A stretch of 63,495 nucleotides of DNA, the filler included, from Collodictyon triciliatum (Eukaryota): the NCBI GenBank assembly GCA_043381765.1. It is 12 parts of 12 records of this genome, joined end to end, with 100 filler letters (N's around TTAATTAATTAA, not from the genome) between each part and the next. Parts side by side here need not be neighbours in the genome. Positions count along the whole stretch, not along the records: positions 42,420 to 47,615 come from JBHJMP010005392.1; 11 more parts are not named here. One strand, given 5' to 3'. The translations under genes and the position numbers were made by a program. Below, one piece after another: positions 34,117 through 50,617 of this stretch (its first letter is position 1; each line of letters starts with the position of its first letter). The notes below the pieces were generated by a model. That model was not told the DNA's origin. It did not search any database and was given only the letters and a program-made list of their open reading frames with translations.

Positions 34117-35872
34117 TATATAAAATATATAATATTCGCGGTCATGTTAACCTCTGAATATCTGGGGATTGATGTTTGCAAAAAATGCAGTCAGTCAGAG
34201 CGAGAATAACTGCGTTTCGAAGCTTTTCACGTTCATATTCACTGAACTCGTATTCCTCGCTAGTTGCTTCAGATATGTCTTTTTGGGACTCTTTAGCAGC
34301 TTCAGTATTAGGTTGGGTTGAGGGCTGGGCCTTTGGTACCTCAACTTTTTTCAAAGTGCGTTCTACTATTGATGTCAATTAGGATGAATATAGTTAGTAT
34401 AAGACTTTTCACATTTTCAAGTTGACAACTAGATACGCTCTTATCTAGTTGTTGCTGTTGTTGTTTGTATTTACTTTTTGTTTTCTCATGTATAGAAGTT
34501 GTTAGAAGCTTCAATAAAAAGAATTGTATATTTTGGAAATGAGTAGCTCGTTGAAATTGTATTTCTGAATAAAAAGAATACCTCCAGGCAATTCTCCTTT
34601 CTCTTCAAGGACAATAGCTGCCCTCTCCTTGTGTTTATTAGAAAGAATATGCTGTTCATATGCCTTTTCCGTGTTGTATGTCTTGCTATGAGTTTTACAC
34701 ATAGATTGCAAATGATAAGTTGCCGCCAACAGCCAAAATTAAAATTAATCTGGGAAAGACTCCCATCTTGCACATATTGAAAGGTTAGATTAAAGAGAAA
34801 AAGACATGATTGAAAAAATTCCTTAATTCGATTCAAAAAAAAAAAGGCATGATTAAAATTAATTATTCAAAGTTTTAAATAGTACAAGCGCATTAAAATA
34901 TCAAAGAATCATTGATAGTACAAGGGAGTTGTTTCTAACCTGCAAATGGTACATGTGGCCAAGTACTTCTCGCCAACTGTGACTTTTGAAGCGTGTTCTG
35001 GCAAATGTGAAAAAATCATTTCATTGAGAGGATAAAAAAAAAAAAAGACAATAGAATATTATGGAAAGTAATGATAGAGTATGGGCAACACAGTATATCA
35101 CGTAGAATGATAATAAATCCTCAATAGTGCAACTGCATGTTAGCACATGTAACAGGAGAACAAAATACTGTAACCGCAACTTACCGCCAAGGCGCTTGAG
35201 GAAAACTTCCTCATTTACAGGGGCAAGACCCGCAACTTTTCTTTTCAGGTTGAAGCGATGAAACTCTGTCTTATAATGATCCTGAAAAAAAGTGGTTCAA
35301 AAACGTCAGCATAATTATTTCTAAATAGTTTGCACGAGTGAATGCACTGTTTCTAAAAGTATTGGCTTTCTTTTTTTTTCGTCCTTGTATTATTAATCCA
35401 GTATTTTTTCTTAGTGTTCACTCGAACATTAAGTAATCTGTTTGTTTGTTTGTTTGTTTGTTTGTTTGTTTGTTTGTTTGTTTGTTTGTTTGTTTGTTTG
35501 TTTGTTTGTTTGTTTGTTTGTTTGTTTGTTTGTTTGTTNTTTTTGTTTGTTTGTTTGTTTGTTTGTTTGTTTGTTTGTTTGTTTGTTTGTTTGTTTGTTT
35601 GTTTGTTTGTTTGTTTGTTTGTTTGTTTGTTTGTTTGTTTGTTTGTTTGTTTGTTTGTTTGTTTAAAAAAGGGAATCATTCTCTTTTGAGCTGATATTGC
35701 GATTGCAAAATACGGTAATAAGCCTTTTTCTTTGAGTGAGCTTCGAGTGGCTGCTTCTTTGGAATAAGACCCAAACCTTCTGCGCAGCAACGGTAGTGAA
35801 CTGGAGTCTGCAAGAGATGCACGTAAGGTACAGTTGGGCTGAGTTTTCAAAGGTTGTTGTAGAGTCCGCCAT
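32662..35872 (-). CDS. REI1: Cytoplasmic pre-60S maturation factor REI1/ZNF622 (C2H2 zinc fingers)
   Basis: TCISCRLQF...DHYKTEFHRFNLKRKVAGLAPV; CIFC; HSFFIPDIEYLVDLEGFLRYIGEKVSVGNICLFCNGKGRSFHSLEAIRSHMVEKGHCKI; C-terminus ...LRVGMKNNNQKHHREQV*. Confidence 0.95.
35437..35664. repeat. (TTTG)n microsatellite in REI1 intron 1
   Basis: Direct observation. The same motif occurs at 31825-31915 (as AAAC) and 62693-62796. Confidence 0.95.
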
Positions 35873-39732: not shown

Positions 39733-42187
39733 CAAAGTGACGAAGTTATTTCAGTGTTTCCTTCAAAGCCACTGCCGGCCAATTCCTACCTTATGACGGA
39801 TTTTGTAGTCAAACCAGGGCCCAAGGCGGAAGATAATCCTTCGTAAGATTGGGAGAGCTCGTGTATATTTTATTATATGTCACCTTGTTATTATTATATT
39901 TTTCTTCATCTCATTTCCCATTATCTATTTCGTTTACAAGACGATTATAATGGAGGTAAATTCATAAGGGTATTGTGCAATATTTCTTTACATATTGGAC
40001 TGATTGACACAAAGAATTCGCATGTGTTATAACCCAATCTCAACCGTGTTTTTTCCCTTCTTTTTGCATGTATGGCTTCAGCCTCCTCAACTTTGAAGGA
40101 AAAGTTCTAAAAGTTGTTGACAACCCAGTCACATTTCACTCAAGGGTAAAGTCGTCAGGATACGGAGCTGCTTCAGTCAACTCAACAAAACCAAAGACAA
40201 CTTTAAAGAGATCAGGCTCATCAGGGTTTTGCATCTATAACTAGCACTTAATCATATATAGTAAATAACATAAAAAATTTTAAAAAAGAGTTAAACACAC
40301 ATACTTACACCTGGCTTATATACACAATAATCATCTTTTCTTTTCTTTTTTTCTTTAAATTGTTTTAAAAGGAAAGCCAACGACTGAATGGATAATAGCT
40401 GATTTTCAAATTAAAAAAATCGTATGTATTGGGGAGAAAGATGAGATTTTTGAGATATGTATTGATATTGCATTCTTTCATCTGACATTCTAGGAACTTA
40501 CTGGAAAAATAGTACCCCATAAATCGTGAACCTCCTCATGTCCCTCGACCTGGGGATATGCTATTGTGCCACACTCCGGCGCCGTTCTACGCCTGATTCA
40601 CTCATGTGAATATTTTCCAACATCACTGCCTTCTTTCTTGTTTTTTTCCCTTTCACTTGGATGTTTCTGTGTGATGATGGTTTTTAAAATAAAAGGAAGA
40701 GAAAGCGAATCTTAATACTATCGATTTGTATCAATCAAGGCAATATAAAGAGAATAACCAACTGCGGGTCTGATAAAGTCACTCGTGAAATAAAGCTCCC
40801 TTTAACAAAGTTTAAAGGAGAAGGAACAGATTATTGAGGTATTTTATAAAGTGACATTCAGCTCATCAGTTTTTGCTTGTGTATCCAACAATATATAGTG
40901 GCACTGGATTGTGGACGAAGTAAGTTACCCATTATACCACTTGTCCATAATTTACCTGTTAACTTAATGGATAGGACACAGCGCCCCGGTTCTTTTAGTT
41001 GCGTATAGTCTCAAGAATGCTATTTATTGACTTTTTCTGCATATAGAACGGTCCGGCTCTGGAGCAGTGGAAATCCTACCACATTTGTCATTTTTCGATA
41101 CGTTGCCAAAAACACAGAGGATGATGCAAGGGTATTGGATTTCTCCGTTTTTTCTTTTAAAAACATAATGCTCATGTTCATATACATAAACGGACTCTCT
41201 AAGTACGGCCATAAATATAACTATTTATATTTTTTTAATAATCAATATTTTTTTACACTTTTTAAAAAAATTAAATGAAAGAGAATCCAGAGTTTTCAGG
41301 CCCAATTTGGCAATCAAAGTTCTATTAAATGAATAAATGTGTTCTTAGTTGTGGCAATAAGTTGATTGGGTACAAATACGTGATTGAGGAAACCCCTAAA
41401 GACCACCTCCTTCGGTAATGGCGAAAGAAAGCCTTGCAATCTTAAATGGGACCTTTCAAAGGGTGTTTTTGCTCCAATATCCTTGTATGAATAACAATAC
41501 CTCAAATCGATGAAATAAATGTAATAAAAATATAAAAACAGGTTCCAGAATAACAATAAGTATATATCAGCTGTGAAATTATCATCAAAGGCCCAAAGTA
41601 TCACAGACTTTGCATGCATAAATTCCTTTTCATCGCGTAAGGAAATTTCCATTTAGGTCACTTTCGCTGAAAAAAAGAACTTATTTATTATTCCCTGCAC
41701 TTGTATTGTATGACATGATTAACTATATTAAATTAACATTCATATTTCTTTAACTAATCAATTGTTTTTTTCTACGTCAAGATATTGTCGTTTGCTCATC
41801 ATCAGATGAGAGTCTCACCGTATTCGATATGGTCATAAAATCGGTAGCACGGAAAATACCTGGTGCACATGCTCGCCCCATACATAGGTTTCCATATCAT
41901 TATATCTTTGCAAACTCGTAGAACGTCCTATATCTCGACAATCTTATAATACGCAAGATTTCTAATATTCGGCCATCACGGATTCCTTGTTTCTTTTCTG
42001 CCTTTTTATCTATCATTATTTTTGTAAAAAAAAAAAAAAAGTAATTTAATTGATTATTCCTTTAATCTCCAGTGTTAGAATGTGTGAAAGCTCTCTATAT
42101 GTATCACATCCACCGGAGTCTTATGAACTCTTTTTTAACTGCGGCCACAGATAATCATGTGAAGATATGGGACTTGAGAGCGAATCG
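39733..42187 (+). CDS. WDR27: WD repeat-containing protein 27 homolog, internal exons only
   Basis: VISVFPSKPL..., VTFHSRVKSSGYG, SSDESLTVFDMVIKSVARKIPGAHARPIH, HPPESYELFLTAATDNHVKIWDLRANR match recalled WDR27 motifs (FHSK.RSSGY; AH.RP.H; Y.LFLT.A....LWDLR). Confidence 0.8.
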
Positions 42188-42236
42188 GTAAAGCATCAAA
42201 ACAGCTTAGACTAGACTAAGTGAAGCAGCACATCTA

Positions 42237-42319
<83 letters not shown>

Positions 42320-42419
42320 NNNNNNNNNNNNNNNNNNNNNNNNNNNNNNNNNNNNNNNNNNNNTTAATTAATTAANNNNNNNNNNNNNNNNNNNNNNNNN
42401 NNNNNNNNNNNNNNNNNNN

Positions 42420-42616
42420 AACCCCTGCTACCCACGCAACCAATCAACCAGTTGGGACGCCCACCTGACCAACTCGCTATCACTGACTTCTTTCCAGTGC
42501 TACCCTCTCCACGGTAGTGTCTTCTACTAGTGTTTGCTCTCTACCATGCGCACCTATCTCACCCCTTTATATGGCATAACCTCGCAGCACTTTGAATCGA
42601 ATAAAGGGGAAAAAAC
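42420..42616 (+). mobile_element. Probable 3' end of a non-LTR element
   Basis: C-rich ORF end (...PDQLAITDFFPVLPSPR*), short UTR, AATAAA and an A-rich tail at the contig start. Confidence 0.35.
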
Positions 42617-43011
42617 ACAACCACCAGATGCCAGCACCATAATTACACGCAGTTTTTTTCAGTGATGCCATTTGAAGCGGGGATACCTTCGCACGTAGCG
42701 CACGCCTTCGTATAGCTGAAACCACGCGCTCGTTTGTGGGAAATGATTATAGCCTAATATCTAGATTACATGTTCAGAAACATATGATACGCTCAAAGAC
42801 ATAGTGCCGCTATGCTCCATTCGCAGTGAATCACCAACCAGCTTATCGCGATGGCCTCGGTATGATTCTGCACCCCAAAACACAGGGCACGCAGGTCGAT
42901 AGGCAAACAGAACAAAGCCACGAAGTCGATTGACTTTTATATTCTCTTTCATTTACTTTGAATCGAATAAAGGAAAAAAAAAATTCTCTTTCATTACAAG
43001 TTAGAACAGAA

Positions 43012-44587
43012 ATGGGGTGTGGCAGTTCTGTGGGCACTGTCCGACCAGCACCTGAGTCGGCTGCGGTTTTGTCTCCTTCTGACACAAAGAGCGCCACCCA
43101 GGGACGGGAGTGCTATGATAAAGAGAAAGAGGAAGAGAAAGCAAAGCTGCAAAACCTCGAGCGGAAAAACCAGCAGCTGGCCCAAGAAAATGCGCGGCTA
43201 CTTGAGAAACAGAAAAACATCGAGCAGGAAACAGCGAAACTGGCCCAGAAAATGGAGGAAAGTCAGCAACTGCTGGTGGAGCAAGAGATGAAGCTAAAAA
43301 TGATCCAGGCCACACCCGCACCGAGCGAGTCAACCGTCCCAATCATCGCATCACCTTACTCCGTCGAGAAAACAATATTCGAGACCCAGACTGAAGCCCC
43401 AGTCGAGCACTTGAACGACTTGAAACAGCAAGTTGAACTACTACAAAAGCAGAAGGCGGATTTGGAAGGGGTTTTGTTGGAGCTTCGACTTGATACAGAC
43501 CAAAAGCTTGAACTCAGAGAAGCCGAGTTATCGAAACTGAAATGGGAACTTCAGGAAGCCAAGAAGAAGTTGGAGAACTTTTTCCATCTCGGAAACACCC
43601 CCGCCAAAGCCAATGGTCATGTAAAAGACGATGCCAGTGGGAATTCATGCGATGATGGGAGTTCTCAGAAGAATCAGCCAAGACATCAACACATAGCAGA
43701 TGGTCCAACTCCTCCAGTAAAGTATGTTTTTACTATTACGTGGCCATGTGTGTGCCTTTTTTTCTTTCTTTCTTTCGAACATTTCGGCACAATATTTCCT
43801 CTCCAAATGATCTTGAGATTTGACTTCAACATGTGATTAGAACGATGGCCCAGTACATCCAAAAGCCCGCTCCAGATTTCTCCGCTCCTGCTGTCGTTGA
43901 CGGCGAGTTCAAGACCGTATCGCTCAAGGACCATGCAGGTAACCTTTTCGAATCCTCCCAACCAACCCATAAGATTGAAGATAAAATACCAAAATTACAG
44001 TACAGAAACAACAAATGAAAAAAACGCATGAAAAAAAAAGGTGATCGAAAAAAAGGTAGAATCATAATCTCATGAGACCCGCACCAGACAAGTATCTCGT
44101 TCTCTTCTTCTATCCGCTGGACTGGACCTTTGTCTGCCCGACAGAAATGGTCGCCTTCTCAGAGCGCGTAGAGGAATTCCGTGATATTGGCGCTGAGGTT
44201 GTTGCGGTGTCTGTGGATTCGGAGTACTCACACCTTGCATGGACAAACATGCCGCGCAAGCAGGGCGGACTGGGCCCGATAAAAATACCCATCCTTGCAG
44301 ATGTGACGAAGAAGATTTCCCGTGACTACGGGGTCCTCCTTGAGGATGCGGGTGTTGCGCTTCGCGGGCTTTTTGTCATAGACAGCAAGGGCATTCTCCG
44401 CCAGATGACAGTGAATGACCTTCCTGTTGGGCGCTCCGTGGACGAGACGCTGCGGTTGGTCAAGGCGTTCCAGTTTGTAGATGCGCGTGGTGAAGTGTGT
44501 CCCGCCAACTGGACTCCTGGAGCCGACACCATGAAGGCAGACCCCAAGGGCTCGCAAGAATACTTCTCCAAGCATGGACACGCCTGA
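43012..44587 (+). CDS. PRDX1: Typical 2-Cys peroxiredoxin (AhpC/Prx1) with predicted N-terminal acylated coiled-coil extension; exons 43012-43721, 43841-43938, 44088-44587
   Basis: Prx motifs [25 protein letters not shown] and YF are intact. Prx core Met at 43845 ([12 protein letters not shown]). The upstream MGCGSS coiled-coil exon splices in frame through GTATGT (43722) and TAG (43840). The Prx call is near certain; the fusion is less so. Confidence 0.9.
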
Positions 44588-44764
44588 CAATACCACCGTT
44601 CAGAGTGCCCATATCTTTGCTGCAGTGCAAGCGCCATCGTATAAAGAACCCTCTCTTCGTGCTTTGGATGCCTCTTTTCAATATATATATTTGTGGTCGT
44701 CGCCTCATCAGGGCGAACAAAATCGCACACATATTAAATTAGATTATGTACATACATTCAGTCA

Positions 44765-44844
44765 TACATACATACATACATACATACATACATACATACA
44801 TACATACATACATACATACATACATACATACATACATACATACA

Positions 44845-44874
<30 letters not shown>
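44765..44874. repeat. (TACA)n microsatellite between convergent genes
   Basis: Direct observation. Confidence 0.95.
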
Positions 44875-44875
<1 letters not shown>

Positions 44876-44963
44876 CAAATACACCTCTTTGCCTGAGCGA
44901 TAAAATATCTTCCACTATTGTTGATTATGCATGAACCGTAATTAAAAAAGGAATTTCAAGACT

Positions 44964-47399
44964 TTATGTCAATATGAGTTGGTTTTCGTGTGTCGTGATC
45001 CAATCCACCGTTTCCTGTAAAGTTTGTATGGGCTCGCGTGGCTGAAACCCCAAATCTCTTTTAGCGGCGCTATTATCCAAGTACCAGTAATGCTGAGACA
45101 TTTCCACCAAGACTGGATCAAGGGATGGGTCCCACTTTCCAAAGATGCTTGATTGATTGATCAATCGATTGGTATTCCATTATGAAACAAAAAAATTGGG
45201 CAAAGAGTAAATATTTAAAATGAATTCATGTTATGGACATGGATGTGAGCAAAAAATATGCTTTTAGGATGGCATAAAACATGATTTCAAATACATACCC
45301 CAAAGCCCAGGAACCGATATGAGCAACTCCACGAACAACTGCGTCTGGAGCCCACAATCGAGGGCGTCCAACGTTTGTCGCCTTTTCAAGAAGCTCAAAA
45401 TATTCACTCAGAGTCATATTTGCACTTCCAAGCAAGTATGTTCCATACGGCTAGATTGGGCATTATAAGAACACACATTCAGCGAGAGGCACTGTGATAT
45501 ATTTGTGTCATTTAATGGTGGAAGAAAAATCAACATAAAATACTATATGGGAGGCTGAAAATGAATACCCACATACAAGTTGAGGAGAGAATGGTGAGGA
45601 GATATACTCCAGTCGTGTAAGTAGTAACATGAGTTTTGAAAATATGAGTTTTAATACTTTGCCAAGAGTCACTGCAGAACGGAAAGCAGATGCTGTATCA
45701 CGAACATCCACAAAAGAGAGACCTCCACTGGGCATGATTGGAATTTTACCTTTCATGAAATCGTAAATACCGCGGCACGAACTCAATCGGAAATCGCCAG
45801 GGCCGAGCAGAAGTGATGGTCTCATACATACAAGCTTTTTATGGAGAATTTACTATCTTAGATGAGTTTTCGAAAAAAAAATACTGTTTGGATTAAAAGC
45901 AAAAATTAGCTATAGGGGATAGATAACCTCAACTCCAAGTTCCTTCGCTAGTTGAAGAGCTTCTCTTTCTGCAACTATCTTGCTATGGTAGTAGGGCTAT
46001 GCATGTATTGAGAAGGGTGATATATTTTCGAAAAAAGAAAAATAAAGAACAAATAACGAAAGATAAAGTTTCAATAACTGGAAAAACTAATATCGATACA
46101 TATTCATTCTAAAAAAAATTGTCATCAAACTATTCCTTAGATGAACTTGCACGTATAATCACAATGAGAGAGAGGAGAATATGTGCGAATATAACTGACC
46201 CAATCTTTAGCTATATTTTCAACATAAAGAGACTCCTCATTTGCTATGTAATCGGCTGTTTTGGAGCATCCGACAACGCCTGATGTTGATGCGTATATGA
46301 CTCGAGAGATTTTTTGACTGGAAGCGACCTTAGCATCAAGGAACAGTTAGAAAGGCTTTATTGTTTATATTTATGCACGAATATTTGCACTACCTTGATA
46401 ACGTTTTTTGTCCCCTCAATATGAAGATCATACATTCCATGGGGGCTTCGACGGGAATGCTCGACGATACCTTTTCATTTCAAGGAAGATGATTATCATA
46501 GACGAAAAGAATATTGTTTTTGGTTCTGGGCATAACAGTACATTAACGCTCGATAATCATTCTAATAAATAGCTATATCTGATAAAACAGGCTGTGTACA
46601 CCTATTCCATTATTTACTTTTATCATATCTTATGCTCAAATTAAAAAAAAAACATATGTTGCGTTTGTTAGTTTTTTTTTATTATACATTCATCTAAATA
46701 TGAAAACTTTAGTTATTATTAACAACCGTTCATTCAAGGATACATATGCGATGATGAAACTCAAACGTTATAATGCATATTTCCTCGAAGTGCTCTTAAG
46801 AAACTCATACTTGTTTTCTGTATGTGTAAAAACAAAGAAAAAAAAGGAAATATATTTTTAAAGAGAAAGGGTAGAGCCATTACCCGCGAGGTGGAAAATG
46901 GCTGAGATATCGGCAAATGCTCTCTTGAGTATTTCTGGATCCATTACAGACCCCTTGATGAAAACCACTCGTTCATTCTTTTGAAGGTCCTGTGTTAAGA
47001 TCACCAAAAAAATAAAAAAAAATAATAATAATAATTAAGAGTGAATCCTGTCTACACATCCAAATAATCACAAAGGACATAGCTAGATAACATATGATGA
47101 AAAAGAAAAGAAAGAGAAAAAGAAAAAGAAAAGAGAAATTGAGAAAGAGAAAGACGCAAGATGATCAATAGGACAAGCTGAGAACCTCTGGAAGAGCAGA
47201 TCGAGCGATCACAACAACTTTGCCCGTCGAATTTGTCTGGTCAGCCAAGATTTGCCGGATGAGCTCAACCCCGAGAAAACCTGTGCCTGCATCGAGTGTC
47301 CCAGGTTGGCAAAAAGGGTGTTGAAATGATTACAACTGCAAAAAAGAAATCATGCTTGCTGATCCTATACTTGCCTCCAGTAATCGCGTAGTTTGTCAT
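44964..47399 (-). CDS. Extended SDR NAD-dependent epimerase/dehydratase (DFR-like/HpnA-like)
   Basis: MTNYAITGGTGFLG (TGxxGxxG), AIFHLAG, IYASTSGVVG, PYYHSK (YxxxK), RPSLLLGPGD and SFVDVRD. Confidence 0.9.
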
Positions 47400-47511
47400 C
47401 CTTGCTTTTAACTGCAGTCGATTCATAGAGTTAATAGATTATTTGACTTTCTTAGCGTTGATCCATTTTTTTGTTTCTCTCTTTCTCTGAATAAAAGGGA
47501 AAAGATTTTTG

Positions 47512-47604
<93 letters not shown>

Positions 47605-47715
47605 TCCCTCTCTCTNNNNNNNNNNNNNNNNNNNNNNNNNNNNNNNNNNNNNNNNNNNNTTAATTAATTAANNNNNNNNNNNNNNNNNNNNNNNNNNNNN
47701 NNNNNNNNNNNNNNN

Positions 47716-50617
<2,902 letters not shown>

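Follow-up and report, generated by a model that had tools for sequence, protein, structure and literature searches.

Typical 2-Cys peroxiredoxins (Prx), such as human PRDX2 and the protein P017512 of Diphylleia rotans, are soluble enzymes of about 195 amino acids (aa), and the PRDX3 and PRDX4 types carry the same catalytic domain behind an N-terminal targeting extension. These extensions are a mitochondrial presequence or a signal peptide, which target the enzyme to the matrix or the lumen. In the present work, a Prx locus of Collodictyon triciliatum was analyzed (positions 43,012–44,587 of a stretch of 63,495 nucleotides (nt) from GenBank assembly GCA_043381765.1, hereafter the window), in which an exon encoding a predicted coiled coil with a putative acylation signal precedes a Prx gene and may be spliced to it in frame. 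The catalytic part has the same FVCPTE, GGLG, VCPA and YF motifs as PRDX2 and P017512, whereas the candidate spliced N-terminal extension of 238 residues would set it apart from these soluble enzymes. It would also differ from the extensions of PRDX3 and PRDX4, which do not combine a lipidation signal with a coiled coil and do not place the enzyme at the cytosolic face of a membrane.

In function, the nearest parallel is Arabidopsis Trx-h2, a cytosolic thiol-redox protein that is tethered to endomembranes by myristoylation of Gly2 and set free to act at other sites (PMC8389195, in excerpt); it is, however, a thioredoxin from another lineage and has no coiled-coil spacer. The trypanosome calflagins and CAP5.5 carry N-terminal myristate and palmitate and associate with rafts or the flagellar membrane (PMC5617996, in excerpt), but these proteins are calcium-binding or calpain-like, and none of them has a peroxidase domain. 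Peroxiredoxins are thought to shape hydrogen peroxide (H2O2) signals by keeping peroxide within microdomains close to the membranes where it is produced, and in the systems studied they are soluble and locally recruited or inactivated (excerpts of PMC10829873 and PMC6406269). A Batrachochytrium dendrobatidis gene model named 'cTPxI' (P0109, 344 aa) has an extension of about 120 aa, a start of the MGxxxS type (MGSTAS) and an internal Met where a Prx usually begins; however, it lacks Cys3, the extension is rich in S/T/P and not a coiled coil, its sequence is unrelated, and the gene prediction is unverified. This model is a lead that other organisms may also have acylated Prx forms. Judged by titles and the openings of abstracts, nothing relevant was found in the literature on acylated, membrane-anchored or coiled-coil-extended peroxiredoxins: papers retrieved with phrases on acylated or membrane-bound Prx concerned red-cell, insulin-signaling or herpes simplex virus (HSV) contexts, and those combining Prx with N-terminal extension, coiled coil and 2-Cys appeared unrelated. 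For Prx together with N-myristoylation and palmitoylation, the matches listed were general reviews of lipidation or post-translational modification.

Peroxiredoxin gene and candidate splice junction

The window comprises 12 record parts joined by 100-letter fillers, adjacent parts need not be genomic neighbors, and positions 42,420–47,615, to which the locus belongs, come from JBHJMP010005392.1. An earlier note on this DNA had proposed a three-exon gene here, and all of its coordinates and counts agreed with direct reading of the sequence. The ATG at 43012–43014 begins the product MGCGSSVG, and the exon runs for 710 nt to a GTATGT donor in phase 2; the TAG acceptor at 43840 restores the frame 4 nt before the Prx ATG (43845), and the total of 710 + 98 + 500 = 1308 nt corresponds to 435 codons plus the stop. 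At the candidate junction, the donor reads aaa/GTATGT (43722), the acceptor GATTAG ends at 43840, and the joined product is ...PPV-K-T-M-A-Q-Y-I-Q. The second intron at 43939–44087 (cag/GTAACC...CACCAG) gives a joined protein that agrees with the alignments to the D. rotans Prx and human PRDX2. As the note had also stated, the open reading frame (ORF) track splits the locus (42934–43836, 43824–44018 and 44060–44587), and the alternative donor GTAAAG at 43717 (phase 0) does not keep the frame when joined to the acceptor at 43840. The ATG at 43012 is the first one after an in-frame stop at 42931–42933, and the frame then stays open for 236 full codons.

By its motifs, the downstream part is a complete typical 2-Cys enzyme of the Prx1/AhpC subfamily and of the hyperoxidation-sensitive type. 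In exon 3, the Pfam profiles AhpC-TSA (PF00578, E-value = 1.4e-32, 112.7 bits at a cut-off of 26) and 1-cysPrx_C (PF10417, E-value = 4.8e-15) were found, and the Prx aligned end to end with human PRDX2 (PDB 1qmv, E-value = 1.6e-78). The peroxidatic and resolving cysteines are both kept, as are the GGLG and YF motifs by which the earlier note had classified the enzyme. Read from the Met at 43845, the stand-alone Prx has 197 aa, and its ATG lies in a strong context (A at −3, G at +4). The nearest sequence among 5.8 billion clusters was the Prx from the D. rotans transcriptome (EukProt EP00002 P017512), with an identity of 88%.

The interval between exon 1 and the Prx has canonical sites at both ends (GTATGT at 43722 and TAG at 43840), its removal preserves the frame in phase 2, and its donor has G at +5, which the rival GTAAAG at 43717 lacks. 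In a two-segment maximum-likelihood model of positions 43400–43840, the composition break fell at 43722–43725, exactly at the donor; apart from the donor, the junction of the exon 1 ORF with the Prx shows neither a repeat nor a gap nor a composition break. The 38 codons that would follow 43721 in an unspliced transcript have GC contents at the first, second and third codon positions (GC1, GC2 and GC3) of 0.32, 0.29 and 0.45, respectively; this composition is non-coding-like, and exon 1 therefore appears to require a downstream partner. Only two AGs occur in 43740–43845, namely, GAG at 43816–43817, which as an acceptor would append K-FDFNM followed by the stop at 43834, and TAG at 43839–43840, which yields the fusion. 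For comparison, six unambiguous introns of neighboring genes were placed through Pfam profile continuity and frame-preserving joins, their boundaries being chosen by us and not RNA-confirmed. Their acceptors were TAG (three), AAG (two) and CAG (one), with no GAG; their donors were GTATTA, GTACTT, GTGATA, GTACGA, GTCTGT or GTTTTG, and GTAACC; and their lengths ranged from 118 to 237 nt, with a seventh, ambiguous intron of 354 nt. The candidate intron (119 nt, GTATGT...TAG) fits this local set, and TAG at 43840 is a better acceptor than GAG at 43817.

The spacing of the two ORFs also bears on the junction. The unspliced exon 1 frame closes 8 nt from the Prx ATG, and there is thus no room for a 3′ end plus a promoter; among the measurable gaps in the neighborhood, the one on the side of the upstream WD-repeat exon is at most about 820 nt, the one before the convergent downstream gene is about 380 nt, and the divergent isocitrate dehydrogenase (Iso_dh) promoter gap is several hundred nt. 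A transcript begun before 43012 has no place to end ahead of the Prx and includes a good pair of splice sites.

Predicted coiled-coil exon and candidate N-terminal signal

Exon 1 is real coding sequence. Its stop-free run of 300 codons was matched in 0 of 20,000 shuffles (longest run, 214 codons), an ORF of at least 236 codons likewise appeared in 0/20,000, and the GC1/GC2/GC3 values of 0.61/0.35/0.53 form a coding-type profile. The single-sequence AlphaFold2 model of its product contained two long predicted helices with heptad periodicity, which bears out the coiled coil reported in the earlier note: strong hydrophobic residues fill 53–63% of the a/d positions in both helices versus 11–24% elsewhere, and the predicted local distance difference test (pLDDT) score was about 80–94 across most of their length. 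Disorder was predicted for the first 21 residues, the loop 100–129 and the last 42 residues. In helix 1, the block pLDDT was 58 for residues 21–30, 86–94 for residues 31–90 and 73 for residues 91–100, and strong hydrophobic residues occupied 56–63% of the a/d positions versus 11–13% elsewhere, with Leu or Ile at d and Asn at a. The nearest clusters in a language-model atlas were generic coiled-coil proteins, and in Pfam no family was found for the exon 1 protein, a sub-threshold DUF3287 match being the only one. No relatives of exon 1 were detected among proteins of 414–2000 aa, among 1.84 billion representative proteins or in metagenome contigs.

The N-myristoylation pattern comprises a Met-Gly start, a permitted residue at position 3, a small residue of the S/T type at position 6 and any residue but Pro at position 7; palmitoylation usually takes place at Cys3. 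Judged by eye against a PROSITE-type rule, M-G-C-G-S-S-V fits G-{EDRKHPFYW}-x(2)-[STAGCN]-{P} and has Cys at position 3, so that the MGCxxS signal recognized in the earlier note, here MGCGSS, conforms to the dual-acylation pattern under this rule. In the context of the ATG at 43012, position −3 is a purine and position +4 is G.

Both start codons of the locus are preceded by the heptamer TTAGAAC, which has three matches on both strands of the window versus 11 expected; two of the three are these copies. Farther upstream of the respective copies, by 10–60 nt, sits GATTGACTT / GATTTGACTT, and the regions upstream of the two ATGs share no longer homology beyond TTAGAAC and GATT(T)GACTT. The pair could mark two acceptors between which a common non-coding exon farther upstream can choose, in which case exon 1 would be a cassette; just as well, both copies could be equivalent contexts for the start of transcription or translation, i.e., two genes.

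Favored reading and its rivals

From the sequence features described above, we give about an even chance to the reading in which exon 1 is spliced in frame to the Prx within one transcription unit encoding a protein of 435 aa. Transcripts would start upstream of the ATG at 43012, continue through the Prx gene and lose the 119-nt intron 43722–43840, and the splice would place a lineage-specific exon in frame ahead of a typical 2-Cys Prx. Myristate on Gly2 and palmitate on Cys3 of MGCGSS would anchor the protein to the cytosolic side of a membrane, the two helices with heptads (aa 22–99 and 130–194) would form a stalk, and a flexible linker of about 42 aa would give the Prx domain enough mobility to assemble into its obligate dimer; signaling-style behavior with sensitivity to hyperoxidation is predicted from the GGLG/YF type. 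The Prx has its own Met in a strong start context, and the locus therefore probably yields a soluble Prx of 197 aa as well, which could occur via an internal start site or exon 1 skipping. We infer each of these elements, namely, the splice, the lipidation, the membrane location and a local H2O2-scavenging or relay role, and the localized H2O2 sensor suggested in the earlier note is of the same standing. It appears rather unlikely that one gene supplies two peroxiredoxins, a soluble and a myristoylated and palmitoylated form, through inclusion or skipping of the 710-nt exon or through two start sites; the acylated form would then be held about 150 helical residues from the plasma or flagellar membrane, clearing or relaying H2O2 where membrane oxidases produce it, and TTAGAAC before both start codons would mark two alternative entry points.

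If the splice is real, the locus encodes a novel architecture on a known enzyme; if it is not, an ordinary Prx lies beside an orphan coiled-coil gene. A Prx hard-wired to a membrane, with a lipid as anchor and a rigid spacer in between, would amount to a natural experiment in H2O2 microdomains and would offer a simple design for targeted peroxide sensors. It would also mean that, in a deep and little-studied eukaryotic branch (relatives of Diphylleia), a housekeeping gene has taken up a young lineage-specific exon.

Similar architectures were sought among long Prx proteins. The survey yielded 459 Prx-like proteins of 290–2000 aa at an E-value of 1e-20 or better, of which the best 120 were examined; PRDX4 and PRDX3 types dominated the long Prx proteins listed. 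None of the extensions inspected by eye was coiled-coil-like (E/K/Q/L/R/A fraction of 0.29–0.56), and no protein combining an MGC start, a coiled coil and AhpC-TSA was found in the protein searches, in keeping with the earlier note, whose author did not know the architecture from characterized proteins. Annotated proteins of 580–745 aa from mosquitoes and Daphnia (P0082, P0087, P0089 and P0093–P0101) have long uncharacterized N-terminal regions and a PRDX4-like Prx domain at the end, and they represent another family of extended Prx.

Several observations weigh against the fusion. The D. rotans ortholog is a stand-alone ORF of 194 aa marked 'complete', and its first residue corresponds to the Met at 43845; the stand-alone Prx is therefore the ancestral product and probably the main one. 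The same fusion was not found in relatives: exon 1 has none, and conservation of the join is thus not demonstrable, while among the best 120 of the 459 long Prx proteins, none started with MGC (0/120), three started with MG (3/120) and none exceeded 75% identity. Splice signals are loose in this genome, so that an in-frame GT..AG pair arising by chance is not improbable; with such signals, the in-frame join alone would be expected about one time in three. The T-rich spacer between exon 1 and the Prx is similar to the T-rich sequence that immediately precedes the predicted start codon of Iso_dh, and its composition therefore fits a promoter or 5′ untranslated region (5′UTR) as well as an intron. 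If an upstream coding exon enters at the AG at 43000 or 43004, Gly2 is not N-terminal. The RNA found covers the Prx end of the locus: one freshwater metatranscriptome (word share 0.06) gave one exact contig of 167 nt, at 44389–44555. When this metatranscriptome was compared at 85% likeness, eight records matched, seven of which were Prx sequences of other organisms (90% or lower); a joint from 43915 to 44089 had 24 replaced letters and came from a divergent contig. There was no match on 42900–43814 in this run, in which the organism is barely represented; this result is uninformative either way. No read spanned the 43721/43841 junction. Metagenome contigs contained no exact match to a 36-nt probe from exon 2.

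A rival reading is that of two separate products, i.e., a soluble Prx of 197 aa transcribed from a start site in the 119-nt T-rich spacer and an independent, lineage-specific coiled-coil gene whose protein stops at the TGA at 43834–43836, either unspliced (with a hydrophobic tail of 38 residues) or via the GAG at 43817 (K-FDFNM). Such an arrangement is a serious possibility, though we hold it to be somewhat improbable. The D. rotans ortholog stands alone and has the same N-terminus, the Prx ATG retains A at −3 and G at +4, TTAGAAC before both ATGs (two of the three copies in the window) could mark equivalent start contexts, the spacer is like the T-rich stretch before the Iso_dh start codon, and the fused form is absent from every database searched. 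However, with a stop 8 nt from the Prx ATG, the two same-strand units must overlap, whereas the other gaps are about 380–820 nt; in addition, the 38 codons past 43721 appear to be non-coding, and any read-through transcript has a good GTATGT...TAG pair and would be expected to be spliced.

The remaining rivals concern exon 1 itself. An unseen upstream coding exon may be joined to the AG at 43000 or 43004, in which case MGC would not be the true N-terminus and there would be no N-myristoylation, whether or not the protein is fused to the Prx. A pyrimidine tract and AGs at 42999–43000 and 43003–43004 lie just before the ATG and the frame is open from both, a LINE-tail (long interspersed nuclear element) micro-insertion with a 12-nt target duplication is present at 42955–42984, and a WD-repeat gene lies upstream on the same strand. 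Nevertheless, this reading is improbable: an in-frame stop occurs at 42931–42933, 42420–42960 contains no convincing coding ORF, the WD-repeat exon closes with its own stop at 42189–42191, and the ATG at 43012 lies in the context given above. An MGC start is rare by chance, and this one therefore looks like a real start. An assembly chimera, or an exon 1 that is a non-functional, never-expressed ORF, is very improbable. Such an artefact would account for the lack of any exon 1 homolog and of an RNA contig on exon 1 in the single run, which barely contains the organism, but the ORF length is far past chance (0/20,000 shuffles), the codon-position composition is of the coding type, the heptads are regular, and nothing but the donor interrupts the junction.

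Features and neighborhood of the locus

The features of the locus are collected in Table 1.

Table 1. Positions of observed and predicted features of the Collodictyon triciliatum peroxiredoxin locus within the window.
Feature	Positions	Strand	Basis or remarks
Exon 1 (MGC-start coiled-coil coding)	43012–43721	+	710 nt, phase 2; aa 1–236 and two further bases (codon 237)
MGCGSSV, putative signal for N-myristoylation at Gly2 and S-palmitoylation at Cys3	43012–43032	+	Pattern judged by eye
Predicted helix 1 (aa 22–99), leucine-zipper-like heptads	43075–43308	+	AlphaFold2 model and heptad count
Predicted helix 2 (aa 130–194), heptad repeats with register shift	43399–43593	+	AlphaFold2 model and heptad count
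Predicted disordered P/D/G/S-rich linker (aa 195–237) up to the donor	43594–43721	+	pLDDT below 50; composition
Candidate intron 1	43722–43840	+	119 nt, GTATGT...TTAG, 45% T
TGA closing the exon 1 frame	43834–43836	+	Used if intron 1 is kept or GAG acceptor 43817 is chosen; 8 nt before the Prx ATG
Exon 2	43841–43938	+	98 nt; contains the Prx start codon 43845–43847
Intron 2	43939–44087	+	149 nt, GTAACC...CCAG, 48% A; fixed by protein homology
Exon 3 (bulk of the typical 2-Cys Prx)	44088–44587	+	500 nt; stop TGA 44585–44587
Peroxidatic Cys codon (Cys48 of Prx, FVCPTE)	44135–44137	+	Motif 44129–44146 aligned with PRDX2; PxxxTxxC context present
GGLG motif	44264–44275	+	PRDX2 alignment
Resolving Cys codon (Cys169 of Prx, VCPA)	44498–44500	+	GEVCPANW 44495–44506 versus PRDX2 GEVCPAGW
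YF motif, C-terminal helix	44561–44566	+	PRDX2 alignment
TTAGAAC heptamer	43001–43007	+	4 nt before ATG 43012
TTAGAAC heptamer, second copy	43837–43843	+	1 nt before the Prx ATG

Upstream of exon 1, a short element consisting of (AC)TTTGAATCGAATAAAGG and an A-run was found in four copies in the window (42955–42984 and 42589–42615 on the plus strand, and 34821–34837 and 49046–49062 on the minus strand) versus 0.1 expected. The copy at 42955–42984 lies 28 nt before the ATG at 43012, is flanked by the 12-nt target duplication TTCTCTTTCATT and places a sense-strand AATAAA just upstream of the start codon of the coiled-coil ORF; the copy at 49046 sits within a predicted Iso_dh intron. Two candidates were tried and dropped: a putative upstream mini-exon, ATGGCCTCG/GTATGA at 42851–42866, was out of frame with both ORFs, and TTTCGAAC, shared with the Iso_dh upstream region, had three copies versus 3.4 expected, which is not significant.

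The WD-repeat gene at 41009–42191 (+) has exons reading ...YRTVRLWS..., ...SSDESLTVFD... and ...TDNHVKIWDLRANR followed by the stop, the last visible exon closing at 42189–42191; a TA-type microsatellite and a masked stretch (42320–42419) follow it. Approximately 165 nt past the Prx stop lies a long (CATA)n microsatellite (44750–44875, +), on which the only Rfam match in 42420–45000 was obtained, a sub-threshold mir-297 hit that is a low-complexity artefact. Farther downstream, long (CT)n and (AAT)n microsatellites (47510–47615 and 47750–47866) lie between an epimerase-like gene (−) and the isocitrate-dehydrogenase-like gene (+), whose predicted start at 47977 is followed by a short Arg/Ser-rich leader and then an intron.

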